IMG/VR virus record: IMGVR_UViG_3300025121_000023
Coordinates: 1-64,000 of that record
Reading direction: 5' to 3' (one strand)
Length of the DNA stretch: 64,000 nucleotides
Source: a virus
The notes beneath the pieces were generated by a model. It ran no database searches, had not been told where the DNA came from, and worked only from the letters and a program-made list of their open reading frames with translations. Positions within the stretch are counted from its first letter, which is position 1. The number at the start of each line of letters is the position of its first letter. This document shows positions 2,423-49,430 of this stretch, piece by piece. The position numbers and the translations under genes were made by a program.

Positions 2423-2502
2423 ACTTCGTATTTGTTTATATACAAAGTACTCAAAATAACTTAAAAATACAAATTATTTTGATATTATTTTAACAATTAT
2501 TT

Positions 2503-2778
2503 TTAAATATTATCTTCTTCTTCTTCTTCCTCAATTATATCTATTTTTCTAAAATCTAAAATAGTTTTATTAAAAAATCTTTTAGATTTTGGGGTTTTAA
2601 GTAATTCTATCAAATTAATAAACGCATATATTATGAAAAAAATTATCATAATTGCACCCAATAAAAAAGAAATAAGTATATCTTTAAAAGATATTGTTTC
2701 TCTTTCCATTATAGATCCTAAAATCAAAAATATTAATCCAATTACTAACCACAACAATATCCATAAAGTCCAATGCAT
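2503..2778 (-). CDS. small two-TM membrane protein (paralogue of 2798-3055)
   Basis: two hydrophobic segments, TILDFRK C-terminal motif, acidic tail. Confidence 0.6.
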   Translation of the reverse strand: MHWTLWILLWLVIGLIFLILGSIMERETISFKDILISFLLGAIMIIFFIIYAFINLIELLKTPKSKRFFNKTILDFRKIDIIEEEEEEDNI

Positions 2779-2797
2779 AATTTTTTATTTTTTAAAG

Positions 2798-3055
2798 TTA
2801 ATATCCATCATCTTCTTCTTGCTGATGTATTTCATAATTTTCGTCTTTATCTCTAAAATCAAATAATGTTATATTTTCTAAATAGCTTATTCCTTTTAAT
2901 GAAAAATAAACTAAAAAGCCAATACCTGTAAAACCCCCACATAATGTTAATCCTAATAGTTCTAGGACGGATATATTCTTTTTTTGATACTTTCGTATTG
3001 ATACTATTGATACAAACCCAATTGATAACCAATATAATATAAAAAATGCCCACAT
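2798..3055 (-). CDS. small two-TM membrane protein
   Basis: two hydrophobic segments, TLFDFRD motif, acidic tail. Confidence 0.6.
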   Translation of the reverse strand: MWAFFILYWLSIGFVSIVSIRKYQKKNISVLELLGLTLCGGFTGIGFLVYFSLKGISYLENITLFDFRDKDENYEIHQQEEDDGY

Positions 3056-3544: not shown

Positions 3545-4723
3545 TTAATCAGTAATTCTTAATATTTTTTTACATAGATTAACTTCTTCAGCATTTCCAG
3601 TGTTTTTTCCTGGGTTATCAGATAATTTAATAGCGTAATTCCATTCACCATTAACTAATACTTCTGAAATTTTTATAACCATATTTAAAGGTTTAATACC
3701 ATAATCATTCGTTAAGTGTGTGCCGATCCCGAAACTACTTTTTATTTTTCCAACACAATATTCTTTTATTTCCGCTGCCTGGGTTACATTTAATCCATCA
3801 CTAAATATAATTGTTTTAGACGTTGGATCAATGCCTAGTTTTTTATAATGTGCAATAACTTTATCCACAAACTCAAATGGATCCCCCGAATCATGTCTTA
3901 CACTTGTGAAAAGAGATGCAAATTTGAAATTAAATGATTTCAAAAATACATCTAATGTGAATGTGTCTGGCAACACTGTTCCTAATAATCCATCACCATA
4001 TGTATCAAGCCACATATCCATTACCATTTTATTAGCCATTCTATAACCATATAGCGTTGCAAGTGTCATGATTAACTCATGTGCCATCGAACCAACACAA
4101 TTTACATTATATTTCATTGCAAAATGAACATTAGATGTTCCAACAAATACGTGTGTATTGTGTGTAGAATATAGACTAACTATTTTATCTTGACTTGCAT
4201 ATGATTTTCTACGTCTTGTTCCGAAATCAGCAAAATATGCATTATGCTTTTTCATTATTGATAACTTATGCAAATCATTATTAATAAAATCTACATCCCA
4301 AACATTAATGTCTTGTCCAGTTTCAATAAAGTATAATTGTGATATTAATGCCATTAAAGGGACTTCAAATAATATTGTTCTATACCAATAACCTTCAATT
4401 TCAATATTTAATTTATTATTTTCATCTAATGATACGTTAACTTCATTAGAATCGTATCTATAACCATAAAGGAAATCAACATATGTTGGTGGTAAGAAGT
4501 GTCCTAATTTATTATTTAAAAAATCTGCTTCGAGTTTAGTTAAAGCAAGTGTTTCCATAAGTTTTATTTCTTCCTTTAATTTAATATCGAATCCATCAGG
4601 AAAAGAAATTTGATTTCTATCTGTGAATTTATATTTAACTTTTAATCTAGGGAATAACTTAATAACTGCATTTTGCATACTATACTTGTAAAGGTCATTA
4701 TCGAGCATCGAACAGATAATCAT
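3545..4723 (-). CDS. pncB: nicotinate phosphoribosyltransferase
   Basis: LDNDLYK, FADFGTRRR, GTSNV, MAHE, RHDSGDP, FSDGL, FGIGT, KLSDNPGK motifs of NAPRTase. Confidence 0.95.
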   Translation of the reverse strand: MIICSMLDNDLYKYSMQNAVIKLFPRLKVKYKFTDRNQISFPDGFDIKLKEEIKLMETLALTKLEADFLNNKLGHFLPPTYVDFLYGYRYDSNEVNVSLDENNKLNIEIEGYWYRTILFEVPLMALISQLYFIETGQDINVWDVDFINNDLHKLSIMKKHNAYFADFGTRRRKSYASQDKIVSLYSTHNTHVFVGTSNVHFAMKYNVNCVGSMAHELIMTLATLYGYRMANKMVMDMWLDTYGDGLLGTVLPDTFTLDVFLKSFNFKFASLFTSVRHDSGDPFEFVDKVIAHYKKLGIDPTSKTIIFSDGLNVTQAAEIKEYCVGKIKSSFGIGTHLTNDYGIKPLNMVIKISEVLVNGEWNYAIKLSDNPGKNTGNAEEVNLCKKILRITD

Positions 4724-4751
4724 AATATTATATTTTTAAATTAATAATATA

Positions 4752-4782
4752 CAAATATACAAATAATTAATTTATAAACAAA
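4752..4782 (-). promoter_or_regulatory. Bacteroidota primary-sigma promoter upstream of pncB
   Basis: minus strand TTTG-N19-TATATTTG matches -33 TTTG / -7 TAnnTTTG. Confidence 0.75.
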
Positions 4783-4787
4783 ACACT

Positions 4788-5123
4788 TTAACTTTTAATA
4801 AAATTTATACATGGTGATAATGTTTCTTTATAAAATTTTTGAACTACAGGTACATTTCCATTCAAATGTATCATTTTAAAAAAATATCTATCTTTAGTTT
4901 CAAATACTTCTGTTCCTATTCCAAGTTCTTTAAAACCATTATAACCAAAAACTTTATTAAGATGCCCAATTAAAATAGGTGTTTCTTCAATAGAAATTAA
5001 TTCTTCTTTAACTGGAATTAATTCTTCTTTTGGTAGTTTGATTATTAAATTAATAATATCTTGTACTATAGCATCATTGTTAATATTATAATTTTTTAAT
5101 ATTTTTTGTATTTTTGTTTTCAT
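4788..5123 (-). CDS. hypothetical protein (likely ATG start at 5123)
   Basis: ORF track starts at a GTG inside the parS-like palindrome; ATG at 5123 is more plausible. Confidence 0.6.
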   Translation of the reverse strand: MKTKIQKILKNYNINNDAIVQDIINLIIKLPKEELIPVKEELISIEETPILIGHLNKVFGYNGFKELGIGTEVFETKDRYFFKMIHLNGNVPVVQKFYKETLSPCINFIKS

Positions 5124-5130
5124 AATTTTA

Positions 5131-5146
5131 TGTTCCACGTGGAACT
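5131..5146. promoter_or_regulatory. parS-like centromere palindrome
   Basis: TGTTCCACGTGGAACT, 15/16 identical to the perfect copy at 34081; intergenic if the ORF starts at 5123. Confidence 0.75.
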
Positions 5147-5151
5147 TTTAT

Positions 5152-5607
5152 TTATTGTGGTTGTAATTCTAATAATGCTAAATCAGTAATAAGTAATTCT
5201 AAAGTTGGTAATAATTTTGCATTTAAAGATGCAAAAACTCTTTCGGAACCTCGATATATAACTAAATTATCTAATTTTAATACGGTTCTATGTAAACCAC
5301 CTACTGTTACATGCATAGTTATATTTAATCCTTGTAGTTCCAATGAAAATTGTGTCGTATCATATCCTATTTTTTCTACATCTATTACAGTTTTATATGT
5401 AAAATGTAATTTATTATTATATGCTACAATATTTGACACATTTTTATTTTTTTGATATGCTTTTACAAGATCATCAATAGTAACACCGTTATAAAATATT
5501 TTAAATTTTAAATCTTTATCATTATATAAATCACTTGTAATATTTGTATGATTACAAGAAGTAAATAACATTAAAAAAGGTAATACTAAATAAATTATTT
5601 TTTTCAT
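5152..5607 (-). CDS. putative lipoprotein
   Basis: MKK + hydrophobic stretch + FTSC lipobox. Confidence 0.7.
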   Translation of the reverse strand: MKKIIYLVLPFLMLFTSCNHTNITSDLYNDKDLKFKIFYNGVTIDDLVKAYQKNKNVSNIVAYNNKLHFTYKTVIDVEKIGYDTTQFSLELQGLNITMHVTVGGLHRTVLKLDNLVIYRGSERVFASLNAKLLPTLELLITDLALLELQPQ

Positions 5608-5872
5608 TTTTATAAATTTTAGTTATACATTATATTGCTTAATTTGTTCGTCAGTAAAAATCATTCTGAAGTCAGAACGTCTTAATCTTAAACGACCATA
5701 ATATTGCATTGCAATACCTATAATATCAGTTCTCCATCTTATTCTTAGTTCAGTATTTTGATCTTCAAGAATTGCGCACCCAATAGCATTAGTCAAAATT
5801 CTTTTTTGTTGATCTTCATCTAATTTTTTAAATTTTCTAATTATAGGCATAATTAAATGTTATTCATTAGCA

Positions 5873-5903
5873 CAAAGATACGAATAAATATATAATTTAC
5901 AAA
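5873..5903 (-). promoter_or_regulatory. Bacteroidota primary-sigma promoter
   Basis: TTTG-N19-TATCTTTG on minus strand. Confidence 0.75.
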
Positions 5904-5907
5904 ATTA

Positions 5908-6453
5908 TTACCAATAAATATTGAAAGTGCAAGATTCTCCACCCATTAAACGAGTTTCTTTTGATTTATCTAAATAAACACCATAATCAATAGTGTCTAA
6001 TGGTTTATATTTACGAAGCATATATGTAATTATTCCTCTATCAAAATCTGATGGATAAGGGTTTTTACAAATCATAATCGCTTTTCTATGTTTTTCATCA
6101 AATCTAGTTAATTCATAATGTCCTATATTACCACCTTTATGATTTAAATGATATGAAATATCTATACTTTTTAAAGCACCTTGTAAATCATTAAAACCAT
6201 TAGACCATAATGCAGTTTTTGGTATTAATTTACCTATTAAGAAAAGAGTTGTTGTACCAATAGTTTCGTACATTTCTTTAAACGCATTTAACCAATCTTG
6301 TTGACTATACCATTTATTAATTTCAGGATTTATATTATATTTATTTAATATTTGTATTCTTTTATCTTTATTAGATGATAATATATTAACTACAGATAAT
6401 ATAGCCTCACCAGTAACTTTAACATCTTTATCAAACGCAATAAATTGTGCCAT
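5908..6453 (-). CDS. V4R-like small ligand-binding protein
   Basis: CKNPYPSDFDRGII and GGESCTFNIYW resemble V4R/H-NOX-like folds. Confidence 0.5.
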   Translation of the reverse strand: MAQFIAFDKDVKVTGEAILSVVNILSSNKDKRIQILNKYNINPEINKWYSQQDWLNAFKEMYETIGTTTLFLIGKLIPKTALWSNGFNDLQGALKSIDISYHLNHKGGNIGHYELTRFDEKHRKAIMICKNPYPSDFDRGIITYMLRKYKPLDTIDYGVYLDKSKETRLMGGESCTFNIYW

Positions 6454-6525
6454 TAAAATTTAATTATTTTTTATCTGTTTATATATAAATTATACAAACT
6501 ACAAAAAGCTTACCATTATTGGTAA

Positions 6526-6921
6526 TTAGTTAAAACTTAACATTAATTTTATATATTCGTCAAAGAAATTTTGCACAGAACCTAATGGTTTGCCATTTTC
6601 ATTTAATAAAATTTCTACGGAAGTACCTTTACCTTTTGCGCTGAATATGATAGCCTTACAACCATCACATTCAACTAACCAAGCATAATTATTATATTCA
6701 TAACGAAACATAAAATCTTGTTTACCCCATAATTCTTTGAATTCGTCAACTTTAGAAGATACTATTTTAGACATTTTTATAATTTCTTCTTCGGATCTAC
6801 TATCATATATTTTTCTTGTATATTCGCGAAAGCAATTAAAATTATCTATTCGTTTAGTAGGTATTAAACTATTTTTATATTTAAGTCCAAATCCTAAAGG
6901 AGCAACAATTTTATTAATCAT
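6526..6921 (-). CDS. hypothetical protein
   Basis: 131 aa ORF. Confidence 0.6.
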   Translation of the reverse strand: MINKIVAPLGFGLKYKNSLIPTKRIDNFNCFREYTRKIYDSRSEEEIIKMSKIVSSKVDEFKELWGKQDFMFRYEYNNYAWLVECDGCKAIIFSAKGKGTSVEILLNENGKPLGSVQNFFDEYIKLMLSFN

Positions 6922-6986
6922 AGTATAATATTATTTTTCATTATATATTTATTTTAAAAATTACAAGTAGTTAAAAAAATAGAAAA

Positions 6987-7610
6987 TTAAATTATTTTAA
7001 CACCTAATTTTTTTAGTTCATCGATTATTTTAGGTTTATCATCATTATTTATAAATCGAATCGCATCTATGATAAAAGAAGTATCAAAATATTTAACAGC
7101 GTCTATTGCTGTATCTTTACAACAGTAATCTCCAGCCAATCCTGTAATGTGAACTTCTGTTACACCTTTCATTTGTAAAAATTCTAATAAACCATTTGAT
7201 TTATCAGGTAATCCACCAAATCCAGAATATGGATGAAAATTAGTATCTTCACCTTTACGGAAAATGAAGGTATTAGGAAGATCAAGATTTAAATCCTCGT
7301 GGAAACAGGCACCAACAGTATATTGAACACAATGATCAGGCCAAAGTGTATCTGTTAATCCATTTACTTCATAACTATCAAATGGATTTTTACCTGGATG
7401 TTGTGAAGCAAATGCTGTATGTTTACGCGGGTGCCAATCCATAGTGAATATAATAATATCATATCCACCTGATGCACCTAATTTATTTATTAATGGAATA
7501 ATTTTATCACCATCTTTTACTGCTAATGCACCACCTAATTTTTTTGCATAATCTTCAGGTGTAGCAGGCATAAAATCTTTTTGACAATCTACGTTTATTA
7601 ATGCTTTCAT
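6987..7610 (-). CDS. pncA: nicotinamidase/pyrazinamidase
   Basis: VDCQKDF, GGALAV, DWHP, WPDHCVQ, RKG, YSGF, GLAGDYCCKDTAID. Confidence 0.93.
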   Translation of the reverse strand: MKALINVDCQKDFMPATPEDYAKKLGGALAVKDGDKIIPLINKLGASGGYDIIIFTMDWHPRKHTAFASQHPGKNPFDSYEVNGLTDTLWPDHCVQYTVGACFHEDLNLDLPNTFIFRKGEDTNFHPYSGFGGLPDKSNGLLEFLQMKGVTEVHITGLAGDYCCKDTAIDAVKYFDTSFIIDAIRFINNDDKPKIIDELKKLGVKII

Positions 7611-8070
7611 ATTATTTGTTTTTAATTTATTTTTAAATTTATATTTTCGCGAGTATCTAAAATACTTTTAATAATTTCTAAATAAGCTTCCCAATTTTTA
7701 AATATTTGTTTACTATCGATTTCATTAGGATTACATTCATAATTTTTTAGATTTACATAAATATTTTTTATCATTTGATTTTCTACCACATTTACAAATG
7801 TAATCTGGATTTTTCTGCCTTTTTTTATTATTTTTTTTACATAATGTCTTTGCCATAATTATTTAATTTATTCTTCAAAACCAGCCATAAATAATAAATA
7901 GAATCCATATCCTACATAAGTTGATAATAATAATAATAATATAATTAAAAATAATGGGTTTAATAATATGAACCAAAATATTGTTAATATTTTACCTAAT
8001 TTATCTTTTAATAAAGTATTAGGTAAAAAGAATACCCAATTTAATATAAATTTGCTTAAATTTTCCATAT

Positions 8071-9135
8071 TTATTTTACCTTAATCAAATCATTAGCAAA
8101 ATATGCACTTACTCTATCTTCTTTTCCATACGGTTTGAAATATAGTTGCCCATCATCTTTTTTGTATATTTTATGTTCACCATCTTTTTGAACATCTACA
8201 ATATCACCTTCTTTTAATTCTACTTCAAATTTATCATAACATTTTACATATTTATCTGTATAAAGTTTATTTTTATAAATATAACTTAATACTTTAGGAT
8301 GTAACATAGTATCTATTGCTTTAAATCTACATAAATTATCATTTTTTGTTAAATGAAATCTTATATCAGTAGATGATATTTCATCAATACTATTATCATT
8401 TTTTAAAAAAATGTGTGGTGGTTTTAAATACCAAACAACATTTTCATTTCTTTCAATACCTTTTCTTGGAACAACAACAAATCTAACCATTCTTTCAAGT
8501 TCTTGAAAATTAACCCACTTATCAAAACTGTTAGCGTTGTCCAATCCAATTATCATACTGAAGTTATATTTTCCTTCATATTCGGATTCTTCTTTAAGTC
8601 TTTTAAATAAATTAAAAGTTTCACCTGCTAACTTATTTTTTATTTCAAAATCACATACTTTAATTCGACCATCAACTTCTGCTGCTAATTTACACATTTC
8701 TAATCTATCATCAGGTGATTCCATATGTTTTCCTAACATATGAGAGTATGCGGGCATTAGCCACACTTCATCAAACATACCAGATGTATTTAATACAAAT
8801 TTAGCAAGTTCAATATGTGAATTATGAATAGGGTTAAAAGCGCCACCTAGGATAGCTACTTTTACTTTTCTTCCTAATGTTTTATATTGTAATGTACGTT
8901 TATTTATTTTGGTAATAGTGTTTTCAATTAATTCTTCGGCATCCCATTCACTTTCATTACATAATTGTAATAAAGATGATAGTAAATCACCAGCTTCTTC
9001 TTTAAGGTTTTTTACATCTTGCCATTTAATTAATTCTAAAAATTCATTTTGAATATCTAAAAGACGTTCTGATAATGGAGTATATCCGAAGTTTTCTTTA
9101 AATACATTATTTATTTTATTTTGTATTTCTTTCAT
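8071..9135 (-). CDS. nadD: MazG-like NTP pyrophosphatase fused to nicotinate-nucleotide adenylyltransferase
   Basis: N-terminal ExxE...KEEAGDLL helical MazG-like motif; GGAFNPIHNSH (HxGH-like), IIGLDN, ISSTDIR of NadD; extra C-terminal tail. Confidence 0.88.
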   Translation of the reverse strand: MKEIQNKINNVFKENFGYTPLSERLLDIQNEFLELIKWQDVKNLKEEAGDLLSSLLQLCNESEWDAEELIENTITKINKRTLQYKTLGRKVKVAILGGAFNPIHNSHIELAKFVLNTSGMFDEVWLMPAYSHMLGKHMESPDDRLEMCKLAAEVDGRIKVCDFEIKNKLAGETFNLFKRLKEESEYEGKYNFSMIIGLDNANSFDKWVNFQELERMVRFVVVPRKGIERNENVVWYLKPPHIFLKNDNSIDEISSTDIRFHLTKNDNLCRFKAIDTMLHPKVLSYIYKNKLYTDKYVKCYDKFEVELKEGDIVDVQKDGEHKIYKKDDGQLYFKPYGKEDRVSAYFANDLIKVK

Positions 9136-11751: not shown

Positions 11752-11831
11752 AATCAGGTATTTAATTATTTAAGTTTATATATAATAGTTATAAAACATT
11801 AAAACGATTTTATAACAAAGTATAAATTCAA

Positions 11832-12005
11832 TTAAAAATTATATTTAACTATTCTACTTTTTAAGAACTTCGTGATTTTCCTTGAACAAAATAATTGTTC
11901 AAACCAGTTTAGTTCCATTATAAACTTTTCAGCATCTATATACCTTTCCGTAAGTTGTTCCATTTTGTTCAATGAAAATTCTGCAATATTTTTTGTATTT
12001 TCCAT
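11832..12005 (-). CDS. small protein encoded inside the loop of attC-like hairpin 1
   Basis: ATG at 12005 just inside the right arm; stop lies in the left arm. Confidence 0.6.
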   Translation of the reverse strand: MENTKNIAEFSLNKMEQLTERYIDAEKFIMELNWFEQLFCSRKITKFLKSRIVKYNF

Positions 12006-12049
12006 ATTATAATTTTTAACTAAATTTATACTCAACCGTTATAGGGCAT

Positions 12050-12232
12050 TTAATCCCACGGATTCTCACCAGTAATTTCGACAAACACATCCTTTAATTG
12101 CTTTACTTTTTCGGGCAAAGCAATACTAAGTTGTTCAACGTGCATTTGTGGTGGCAACGGCATCTTTAATGAGTGTGCAAGGTTGTCAAGCGAATCAATC
12201 AACTGACCAAGTGTTTCAAATTTATCTTCCAT
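12050..12232 (-). CDS. small cassette protein (MEDKFETL...)
   Basis: ATG at 12232; lies wholly between GTTATAGGGC and GCCCTATAAC. Confidence 0.65.
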   Translation of the reverse strand: MEDKFETLGQLIDSLDNLAHSLKMPLPPQMHVEQLSIALPEKVKQLKDVFVEITGENPWD

Positions 12233-12381
12233 TGTAATTAAAATAAACGCCCTATAACAACAAGTATAGCAAAGCAGGGGCGTGTTCTGTATGCTATCTG
12301 AGTGCATCTAATTTACTTCATCACGGCTCGACAGGTTAGCACTCTAAATCCCTGCCTTGCTATACTTGCAGCCGTTAGCAA

Positions 12382-12651
12382 CTATAATTTGCTTTTAAAT
12401 TCATCTACTAATTTAGTTTTGTACTCATCAGTAAATTTCATCTCGAATTTATCGGCATACCAAGTAATAAAAGCAAATAACAGTTCACTTCGTTTGCTAA
12501 CACATTGTATATCCAAATTTTTAACAAAAGTTAGTATGTTATTTTCAATTCCTAGCGTTTCACAAACTCTGTCATAAGCATCTGCCTTTGGTCGAACTTC
12601 TGTAATTAATTTTATCAGTTCTTTCTTTTTTAATTGTTCTAATGTTTTCAT
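12382..12651 (-). CDS. cassette-junction protein (...DIQC|VSKRSELL...)
   Basis: starts in a hairpin loop and reads through arm and GTT (Val) junction. Confidence 0.7.
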   Translation of the reverse strand: MKTLEQLKKKELIKLITEVRPKADAYDRVCETLGIENNILTFVKNLDIQCVSKRSELLFAFITWYADKFEMKFTDEYKTKLVDEFKSKL

Positions 12652-12693
12652 CTCTTTTATTTTTTGTTAAAAATCAGTATATACAATCATACG

Positions 12694-12951
12694 TTAGCGG
12701 TCATTGCCGTAACACTCTTGTTTATATTGTTCCAATTTATCATACAGTACTTTAAATTGTGGTTGACCGTTATCAATTAGCCAATCAATAAAATGGTAAG
12801 TTGGGTTTATATATTTGCGAATTTTATCACCCATTGTATCAGGCAACGAACCGCTAACACCCAATAAATCCAATAAAAGCTTTCGTGCTTTATTGTCAGT
12901 TATAGTGCCTTGTTCAAGGTCTTGTGCTATTTTTGAAAGTTCTGTTTTCAT
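12694..12951 (-). CDS. cassette-junction protein (...DLLG|VSGSL...)
   Basis: starts in a hairpin loop, reads through GTT junction, stop TAA is part of the next TAAC core. Confidence 0.7.
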   Translation of the reverse strand: MKTELSKIAQDLEQGTITDNKARKLLLDLLGVSGSLPDTMGDKIRKYINPTYHFIDWLIDNGQPQFKVLYDKLEQYKQECYGNDR

Positions 12952-12992
12952 AATCTTTTACTGTGTTTATTTTTAAAGTTAGAAGTAATAAA

Positions 12993-13277
12993 TCAAACTA
13001 CCATAGTGAAACTATCAGAAATCCAATTATCACCAACATATATTTCACTATCGAGTCCGTCAAATTCAACAATATTCGTACAGGTATAAATTTTATCTTC
13101 TTCCCAAAATTTACTATCTCTCATAATTTGTGTTGGTAATTTGACTTTGAATTTCTGACTTATTTTCGTAACCTTACCGTTTAATTTACTACTTCTAATA
13201 TCAGATATACTCAAGTTTTCTTGATATTCATTGAAACTTTGTATGTATTTATTATCTTTATTCTTCAACGTATTCAT
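12993..13277 (-). CDS. cassette-junction protein with KYIQSFNE leader (...ENLSISD|IRSS...)
   Basis: junction ATTAGAAGTA pairs with TACTTCTAAC on the minus strand at 12987-12978. Confidence 0.65.
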   Translation of the reverse strand: MNTLKNKDNKYIQSFNEYQENLSISDIRSSKLNGKVTKISQKFKVKLPTQIMRDSKFWEEDKIYTCTNIVEFDGLDSEIYVGDNWISDSFTMVV

Positions 13278-47887: not shown

Positions 47888-49430
47888 TATCTTCTTTTTT
47901 TACATCATTAAAGTAATAATCACCTTTATATTTATAATAATCATCAGTTGGATCATCCTCATAACTAACTATAAATTTTTGTTTACTATAATCTTTATAG
48001 ATTTTAATATGATTTTTTATATCTACATAAGTAAACAATCTATCTGAATATATACTATCTTCTATTTTAAGCCATTCGTCTGAGAAATTATTATAAACCC
48101 AACCATGATATGGATGTAATCTAACTTTTAATACCCAATCTTTATATTTTTCTATATATTCTGATTCGTTTTTTTGTATCCAAGAATCATGATATTTTGA
48201 TTTAACAAAATATTTATCTATATTATCTTTATGTGTATATCTATGATTAATACTAATATGAACTGCATCTATTTTTTTAATCCATTCATTATTTATAAAA
48301 TCTATAATCCATTCTTTATCAGTCGTTACAAAAACTTGGTTATATCTCTTAGAATATCTTATATTACTTTGACCATATGTATCCCATAATGGTGTATATT
48401 TATTAGATTGTATATGGTTATTATTGTTTGTTAATATCCCGTCATATGGATTATAATTATATAATGTATCTAGAAATGGAAATTGTAATTCATCTGGTTT
48501 AGGGCATTTAATACCTTTAACGACCATTTTAATTTCTACTGATTTATCTTTTTCATAACCATATATAGGACAATCTTCATCACTATTTTGTCTACTTTTA
48601 TGTAAATATCCATTTGATTTAATATATGATAAAAATTTAATTAAATGATTATTTGAATTATAATATATTCTATCTACAAAATATTTATTTTTAACTTGTT
48701 TATCATTTATTTCAGAAAGTTTCCATATTAAAGCTCTACCATCTATTTTACTTTTATCTTTTTCATTATGTAAAATTATCAGTCGTACTGTAGGTGAATT
48801 TATAGCATAAAATTTTAAAAATCCACTACACATAGCTTTATTCATACAAGAATTTGTTAATGGTGTATTTATATCAAAATATGCAATTTGATTTTTATTA
48901 TAATAATGCACAATATCATCACCTTGTACTATTTCGAATAAATCATAATCTTTTGTTAATACAGTGGCATACATGTCCATAAATGATTGTATATCATTAT
49001 CTGGATATCCGTTTGGTTTAAATTCATTAGGAAATAATTTATTTATTAATTTACCTATTTTTATTTTTATTTTATATTTTTTTAATTCATTTTCATAGAA
49101 ATTGATATAGCTTTTAATAGTATAATTATTATAATTATTAATTTTATTAATATCATTGTGTATAATATCTATAATTTTATTAGATGTAATAAAAGATAAT
49201 TTATCTTTTTCGTCATAAATAACATCTAACATCGTTTCTTTTTTATATTCTTCTTCTTTTGATGTTTTTAATAATTTATATGCAATTGGATGTATTATTT
49301 CTTTTAAAATTGCTTTTAAATTATCTGATAAATAAAAAGGTAAAGCACCATCTTTTATTGATAAATCATCAGAATAATATTCTAATATTTTATCTATTCT
49401 ATAATCATCAAAATATTTTATTATTTTCAT
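47853..49430 (-). CDS. 'SCM/DRIY' family protein
   Basis: tandem paralogue of 46610. Confidence 0.75.
   Translation of the reverse strand: MKIIKYFDDYRIDKILEYYSDDLSIKDGALPFYLSDNLKAILKEIIHPIAYKLLKTSKEEEYKKETMLDVIYDEKDKLSFITSNKIIDIIHNDINKINNYNNYTIKSYINFYENELKKYKIKIKIGKLINKLFPNEFKPNGYPDNDIQSFMDMYATVLTKDYDLFEIVQGDDIVHYYNKNQIAYFDINTPLTNSCMNKAMCSGFLKFYAINSPTVRLIILHNEKDKSKIDGRALIWKLSEINDKQVKNKYFVDRIYYNSNNHLIKFLSYIKSNGYLHKSRQNSDEDCPIYGYEKDKSVEIKMVVKGIKCPKPDELQFPFLDTLYNYNPYDGILTNNNNHIQSNKYTPLWDTYGQSNIRYSKRYNQVFVTTDKEWIIDFINNEWIKKIDAVHISINHRYTHKDNIDKYFVKSKYHDSWIQKNESEYIEKYKDWVLKVRLHPYHGWVYNNFSDEWLKIEDSIYSDRLFTYVDIKNHIKIYKDYSKQKFIVSYEDDPTDDYYKYKGDYYFNDVKKEDIDKYNEINKNT

Follow-up and report, generated by a model that had tools for sequence, protein, structure and literature searches.

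Open reading frames that start in hairpins and run into their cargo: a candidate integron-like cassette array in a very AT-rich viral contig

Introduction

Three consecutive small open reading frames (ORFs) of a viral contig run in frame through what look like the crossover cores of a recombination array. This raises the question of what moves in such an array: whole genes, as in integrons, or parts of proteins. The window, by which we mean the whole stretch of DNA that was analysed, covers the initial 64 kb of a viral contig that measures 112,560 bp and has a G+C content of 23%. CheckV estimated this contig to be 23% complete, and its source is therefore probably a very large phage. The same DNA is present in metagenome runs from groundwater and soil, and the minus strand carries nearly all genes of the window.

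A reading of this DNA made from the sequence alone (hereafter the sequence-only reading) had placed the cassette crossover at the GTT codon of these ORFs, so that genes would span two cassettes and the array would make chimeric proteins, unlike integrons, which move whole genes. Here we describe the array and its relatives, and weigh which of its two cores bounds the mobile unit.

Results

A compact array of five units

The integron-like array consists of five units on the minus strand (11788-13199), with five self-complementary core pairs and four hairpins packed within 1.4 kb (Table 1). The units start and end at 13199/12978, 12858/12693, 12501/12374, 12258/12038 and 11816/11788, respectively. 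Each unit opens with bases that can pair with those ending in its own AAC core (8-9 of 9 positions at all five), and successive units are separated by imperfect hairpins. All four hairpin sites are flanked by AAC and GTT, within cores of the types GCTAAC/GTTAGC and TATAAC/GTTATA. The hairpin arms measure 17-26 nt and are 88-95% complementary; as read off the sequence, arm and core are separated by approximately 4-6 nt at the 5' end of the site and by 1-4 nt at its 3' end. As in attC, an inner imperfect inverted repeat is thus kept apart from the cores by a few unpaired bases. Their sequences fall into four unrelated families, to which only the 6-8 nt cores are common.

The G+C content of the array (27-39%; window 11900-13100) is above that of its nearest flanks (16-25%), which suggests that the array is of foreign origin and that its cassettes were imported from less AT-rich genomes; related contigs carrying the same modules have 29-46% G+C. 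A structural scan of the 112 kb remained at background outside 11.8-13.2 kb and revealed no second array. An isolated AAC-hairpin-GTT candidate of 137 nt was seen at window positions 48036-48170; such matches occur at background frequency.

The array closes with a palindromic unit, which may be an empty or primary site. A 38-nt look-alike of this palindrome, including the next hairpin arm, was seen on unrelated contigs of two other runs, and a similar mini-palindrome also closes the array of a related locus, L006.

Table 1. Coordinates of the array features in the window.
Feature	Coordinates	Strand	Remarks
ORF A, 94 aa	12993..13277	-	Upstream edge of array; reads through ATT AGA AGT at 13199
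Start core of unit A, ATTAGAAGTAGTAAATTAAAC	13179..13199	-	Complementary to 12978-12998; inverted repeat 31 nt, 77%
End core of unit A, ...TACTTCTAAC	12978..12998	-	First AAC boundary of the array
Hairpin site 1, conserved leader module of ~125 nt	12859..12977	-	Arms 12971-12955 / 12879-12863; contains start codon (12951) and codons 1-31 of ORF B
ORF B, 85 aa	12694..12951	-	Open frame, protein matches, structure model
GTT core GTTAGCGG	12851..12858	-	Frame-0 Val-Ser; complementary to 12693-12700
AAC core CCGCTAAC	12693..12700	-	Contains the TAA stop of ORF B; putative main cassette boundary, judging from relatives
Hairpin site 2	12502..12692	-	Arms 12687-12662 / 12529-12504; 26 nt, 88%; contains start codon (12651) and codons 1-50 of ORF C
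ORF C, 89 aa	12382..12651	-	Reads through GTT AGC AAA at 12501
AAC core TTGCTAAC	12374..12381	-	Complementary to GTTAGCAA at 12501-12494
Hairpin site 3	12259..12373	-	Strong 19-bp stem, arms 12368-12350 / 12279-12261; 95%
Unit D, GTTATAGGG to CCCTATAAC	12038..12258	-	ORF D (12235 to 12050), or 85-aa form from 12307
Hairpin site 4	11817..12037	-	Arms 12032-12008 / 11843-11819; 25 nt, 92%; ORF E (12014 to 11832) lies in its loop
Terminal 29-nt palindromic unit, GTTATAAAA + 11 nt + TTTTATAAC	11788..11816	-	Almost no cargo

Reading frames across the cores

As had been claimed, ORFs A, B and C each cross an (A/G)TT core in frame 0, and their stops fall in or shortly before the AAC core that follows. 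ORF B reads ...LLDLLG and then GTT AGC GGT (V-S-G-S-L), ORF C reads ...LDIQC and then GTT AGC AAA (V-S-K-R-S), and ORF A reads ...ENLSISD and then ATT AGA AGT (I-R-S-S). Their stops lie inside CCGCTAAC at 12700-12693 (ORF B), 6 nt before TTGCTAAC at 12381-12374 (ORF C) and 13 nt before TACTTCTAAC at 12987-12978 (ORF A). The core triplet of ORF A is ATT, not GTT; its relatives read DVRSS, and thus have GTT where the window has ATT. The short tails at the other two junctions (VIGRLF* from 12258 and VIKSF* from 11816) also read as described, and the ATG of ORF B lies in a hairpin loop, between the two arms of site 1. Hairpin site 3 looks non-coding. An 85-aa frame (12050-12307, minus strand) starts in its loop and crosses GTTATAGGG in a different frame (...CCYRAF...), in frame with the ATG of ORF D at 12235.

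The AlphaFold (AF2) model of ORF B (mean pLDDT 69) is two-part: helices are predicted at residues 2-14 and 19-29 in the N-half and at 41-60 and 64-81 in the C-half, and the low-confidence stretch 33-42 between them covers VSGSLPDT. On this model, the codons at the GTT core probably encode a flexible linker, so that new pairings should be tolerated where halves meet at a standard frame-0 junction. No match was found for ORFs A-E in Pfam or PHROGs, nor for ORFs A, B and C by tblastn against GenBank phages, and the ESM Atlas gave no usable match. The leader of ORF C, searched as a DNA pattern, gave only chance matches, in capsid and scaffold genes.

The same anatomy in related loci

The ~125-nt leader module of hairpin site 1 recurs in 27 other loci, of which 23 are stretches of metagenomes and 4 are IMG/VR contigs; the homology stops exactly at CTAAC (12982) and GTTAGC (12853). 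By a degenerate protein search it was also detected in a Bacteroidota MAG labelled Ekhidna sp., and the exact 23-nt leader pattern was absent from 185,579 species genomes. The 20 related loci that remained after removal of redundancy agree without exception: the start codon of the ORF falls within the hairpin, GTT is a frame-0 codon, and the stop lies at the AAC core or shortly before it (20/20 each), with the TAA inside CTAAC at nine of the 20. In 17 of these loci, 10-14 of the 14 nt that follow GTT can pair with the 14-nt stretch that AAC closes, compared to a median of 7 in 800 random controls, approximately 1% of which reach 10. The same cassette anatomy repeats in dozens of unrelated contigs. 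We take the leader to be coding because its frame is open in all copies; codon-position entropy favours third positions only mildly and is biased by the exact-match search.

The stem of site 1 pairs at 15 of 17 positions in the window copy and at 15-17 of 17 across copies, and in a diverged member (L008b) a double change restores full stem pairing. This site is AT-rich, and its predicted single-stranded fold is no better than that of shuffled sequence (z -0.45, window copy). The non-coding site 3 (12381-12250) is clearly structured (z -3.0). One-base bulges in related sites were noticed by eye.

Locus L006 (IMGVR_UViG_3300020043_005397) has at least eight units. Some look classical, their ORF lying entirely between GTT and AAC and their hairpin being non-coding. 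One leader of this locus reads the core in another frame, and a leader of 10 codons continues into the 5' region of a cargo equipped with a start codon. On the reverse complement of L006, positions 1-121 at the contig end exactly repeat 1671-1791 (a cargo end and the following site) and then diverge, as if the assembly had branched because the array exists in two arrangements within one population. Larger cassettes at 2461-3054 and 3794-4333 of the same strand resemble, by eye, a metallophosphatase (GDVHG...GNHD) and a DNA methyltransferase (TNPPY). L006 and a further locus, L008, have flanking genes that are 99% identical and different cassettes between them. In the Ekhidna sp. MAG (L039, NZ_JAVKDX010000010.1), small ORFs with ...ADVS... 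junction motifs lie at 4000-8400, upstream of the matched cassette, which suggests a longer array of the same kind in a 162-kb Bacteroidota contig of 46% G+C.

N- and C-halves are re-paired at the Val codon

If proteins are assembled at the GTT codon, a given N-half is expected to precede different C-halves exactly at this position. A protein search with ORF B, the front half of which begins MKTELSKIAQDLEQG..., returned 128 matches. More than 100 protein clusters share the 31-residue leader MKTELSKIAQDLEQGTIT..EAR.LLLGLLG, which is followed, after V-S, by dozens of unrelated C-halves. Conversely, the C-half of ORF B (VSGSLPDT.GDKIRK.INP..HFIDWLIDN...) stands behind seven different N-parts of 31 to 57 residues (P0001-P0005, P0170 and P0171); P0001 and P0002, counted from the printed sequences, are approximately 35% identical before the junction and 87% after it. 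The N-half of ORF C precedes more than 20 different C-halves, and its cargo is known with three N-halves: it is 100% identical behind an unrelated N-part of 52 residues (P0125) and 92% identical behind another (P0130). As far as protein sequences tell, N- and C-halves are naturally re-paired exactly at the Val codon.

The expectation of the sequence-only reading was thus borne out for ORFs B and C, whose halves are always joined at the V-S codon, and failed for ORF A. For the latter, about ten homologue clusters were collinear over the whole length and only a few had other N-termini; collinearity across the junction is the pattern that this reading itself had held to speak against a chimera. 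The sequence-only reading had also seen a capsid-targeting-like leader in KYIQSFNE, by which incoming C-halves might reach the virion. No support for this suggestion emerged, and in the collinear clusters the N-part of ORF A is conserved jointly with its C-part.

The probable mobile unit: a hairpin with its downstream gene

Since the self-complementary ends of a unit fit a crossover at either core, we examined which hairpin is linked to which cargo. The sequence-only reading amounts to a crossover at G|TT: the cassette would consist of a cargo and its downstream hairpin, every gene would be a chimera of two neighbouring cassettes, and new proteins would arise whenever a cassette moved. The array would then be oriented like a canonical integron, in which the crossover falls in GTTRRRY and the ORFs are on the top strand; this arrangement accounts equally well for the self-complementary cassette ends, and the re-pairing of halves at the Val codon that it calls for exists. 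However, the same cargo is followed by different downstream hairpins, with identity ending at AAC, in several sets of loci: L020 versus L024; L009 versus L013, L015 and L025; and L027, L029, L032, L039 and L041-L043. This rules out cargo plus downstream hairpin as the unit. Moreover, near-identical hairpins are preceded by unrelated cargo, and hairpin variants track the downstream and not the upstream cargo. These linkage data contradict a G|TT cassette crossover, which we consider improbable.

The hairpin, the GTT core and the cargo form one homology block. Within each of the three sets of loci this block is shared whereas the sequence to either side is unrelated, the breaks falling at AAC; up to seven such contexts were seen for one block. 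Hairpins of cargo-sharing pairs are 89-99% identical, against a background median of 86%. These comparisons, a correlation of sequences in loci anchored on one leader family and one cargo family rather than observed events, indicate that what ordinarily moves is mostly a hairpin together with the gene whose start codon it contains, the unit having an AAC boundary at either end. In the window, cassettes drawn on AAC boundaries run from 12978 to 12694, 12693 to 12375, 12374 to 12039 and 12038 to 11789. Each of them holds a complete ORF, so that ORFs B and C do not span two cassettes, contrary to what the GTT codon as cassette crossover had implied. Because hairpin variants co-vary with cargo, ordinary cassette movement would carry whole genes, as in integrons. 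Of the claim that the array makes chimeras, unlike integrons, the re-pairing at the Val codon therefore stands, while routine movement appears to be that of whole genes.

The GTT codon, by sequence comparison, looks like a second and rarer exchange point. For cargo B, exchange at GTT has been used often: every known relative of this cargo has a different N-half, and exchange at GTT may therefore be as common as at AAC. Hairpin and cargo would then be two independent module types exchanged at AAC and GTT at similar rates, in a two-level combinatorial system. The different N-halves of all seven known members of the cargo B family fit such a system, as do the 100% identical cargo C behind an unrelated N-half and mismatched combinations such as the 10-codon leader of L006. 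It is at odds with the co-variation of hairpin variants and cargo, and with a search that used cargo only and is hence unbiased by the leader: relatives with 89%, 71% and 70% identity had progressively diverged leaders of the same family, and only at 48% was the N-part a different one. In the one cargo family searched in this way, the N-half thus co-diverges with the cargo down to approximately 70% identity. Similar rates at both cores appear distinctly unlikely to us.

A third account dispenses with a dedicated site-specific system: the leaders would be linkers for general or phage homologous recombination, similar to the PeSL cassettes of T4-type phages, and the hairpins would serve expression. 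The leader of ~125 nt, with 77-99% identity across contigs, is long enough for such exchange, an ERF-like gene (by eye only) lies near the arrays in two loci, and PeSL-mediated shuffling as well as mini-circles are documented (PMC2839356). Against this, the four hairpins of the window have nothing but their cores in common, and the occurrence of the same cassette between unrelated flanks leaves no flanking homology. The mutually complementary cargo ends, the sequence of which differs from cargo to cargo, would also go unexplained. We regard this account as unlikely.

Recombinase and rearrangement searches

No tyrosine recombinase (PF00589) was matched at E<=1 in the whole 112,560-bp record, which is 23% complete. 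In locus L008, a temperate-looking contig, positions 6632-7818 hold two neighbouring genes, a repressor-like HTH gene and one for a XerC/D-like tyrosine recombinase of 292 aa. The latter lies 6 kb away from the cassette array, and its product scores far below the integron-integrase cut-off of TIGR02249 (85 versus 265 bits). A phmmer search with this protein against all fetched ORFs gave no further recombinase, and no gene family common to the neighbours of the loci was found. In the contigs of four groundwater and soil runs that carry the same array, neither rearrangement nor excision was seen; three listed joints were discarded, their sides being 20-21 nt long. A search for an empty site by way of the flanking genes led to a distant relative (L034, 57% aa identity) that has ordinary genes at this position, and gave no match for the other flank.

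Discussion

We think it probable, with some reservation, that small mobile cassettes make up an integron-like array at 11788-13199 of this very AT-rich phage fragment, and that whole genes bounded by AAC move while exchange at GTT is rarer. In such a cassette, an AAC core is followed along the coding (minus) strand by a short spacer, an imperfect hairpin, a GTT core, the cargo and a stop. The hairpin loop holds the start codon and the first 20-50 codons, and the GTT core reads as a Val codon in frame 0. The cargo, devoid of a start codon of its own, has complementary ends (the first ~12-16 nt with the last ~12-16 nt), and its stop falls in the next AAC core or shortly before it. By analogy to attC, a site-specific recombinase acting on the folded single strand would cut and join at the AAC core, which is G|TT of the other strand, and would thereby move whole genes with the site at their 5' end. 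Taking the non-coding strand as the canonical top strand would give the layout of an integron cassette, with the gene antisense and overlapping the site. The GTT core would be the mirror-image core of the same folded site, and a rarer exchange there would separate leader from cargo and yield chimeric proteins; such exchange could proceed by recombination of the opposite strand, or by microhomology.

Virulent phages, a Polaribacter phage among them, are known to carry clusters of attC sites without integrase (CALINs), and IntI1 can recombine these sites (Qi et al. 2023, PMC9892861). The top strand of attC, that of phage-borne sites included, recombines less often than the bottom strand (PMC9892861). 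The array described here resembles CALINs in its small co-oriented cassettes and in the succession of AAC core, spacer, imperfect inverted repeat, spacer and GTT core. Further likenesses are that the first bases are complementary to the own AAC core, that cores are kept while the site sequence varies, and that no integrase lies beside the array. Unlike attC, the sites lie at the 5' end of their gene and within predicted coding sequence, with the start and 20-50 codons in the loop and 3' arm, and many cargos have no start codon of their own. The complementarity of cassette ends extends over 12-21 nt, compared to the 7-nt core of attC, the sites reach up to ~230 nt, and the other core appears to serve as a second exchange point. 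Unlike in a complete integron, no IntI-type gene was found in the record (112,560 bp, 23% complete).

ORFs that start in a recombination site and cross the crossover into the cassette also occur in class 1 integrons, namely ORF-11 and ORF-18 of attI1 and short attC ORFs, and provide translation signals for cassettes that have none; ORF-11 aids the translation of cassettes (review PMC8876359). In class 1 integrons such a short ORF is a coupling peptide that ends at a stop in the cassette core, whereas here a conserved two-helix N-module is predicted to be fused in frame to the cargo, in a design that is regular over many cassettes. PeSL cassettes shuffle genes of T4-type phages by homology (Arbiol et al. 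2010, PMC2839356) and resemble the present array in that modules with stem-loops, set among small non-essential genes of a phage, serve the shuffling of modules and their horizontal exchange. PeSL are near-identical, untranslated promoter-terminator units; in contrast, the sites described here differ from each other, share only AAC/GTT cores and bound cassettes with self-complementary ends. In the literature searched, no description was found of a translated site that gives a conserved N-terminal module to start-less cargos. Compared to integron arrays, the sequence comparisons point to translated, 5'-placed sites and a second, in-frame exchange point as the novel traits.

A site inside a gene that joins a constant N-part to alternative C-parts is also a property of inversion systems. 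Gin and the G segment of Mu, Cin of P1 and the R64 shufflon invert segments that carry opposed alternative exons beside the recombinase. An inversion model was rejected for the present array: across the cargos the plus strand offers only short, closed frames, and, unlike in those systems, the units move between genomes.

Beyond cassette movement, the array might be part of a dedicated protein-assembly system, in which site-specific recombination at the second core would re-pair leaders with start-less C-terminal effectors by way of the frame-0 Val codon and the linker, and so diversify small early, possibly anti-defence, proteins. This would amount to combinatorial domain shuffling that occurs naturally and at the level of DNA. 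We put this idea forward tentatively and think it rather doubtful.

Sites of the integron type have been seen as non-coding movers of whole genes; here, the site doubles as a first, exon-like protein module. With one 31-residue leader in more than 100 protein clusters, this bears on the annotation of many small phage ORFs. Should an enzyme carry out the exchange at the Val codon, this would represent a prokaryotic mechanism that builds new proteins from parts, and would offer a handle on how integron cassettes acquire their sites.
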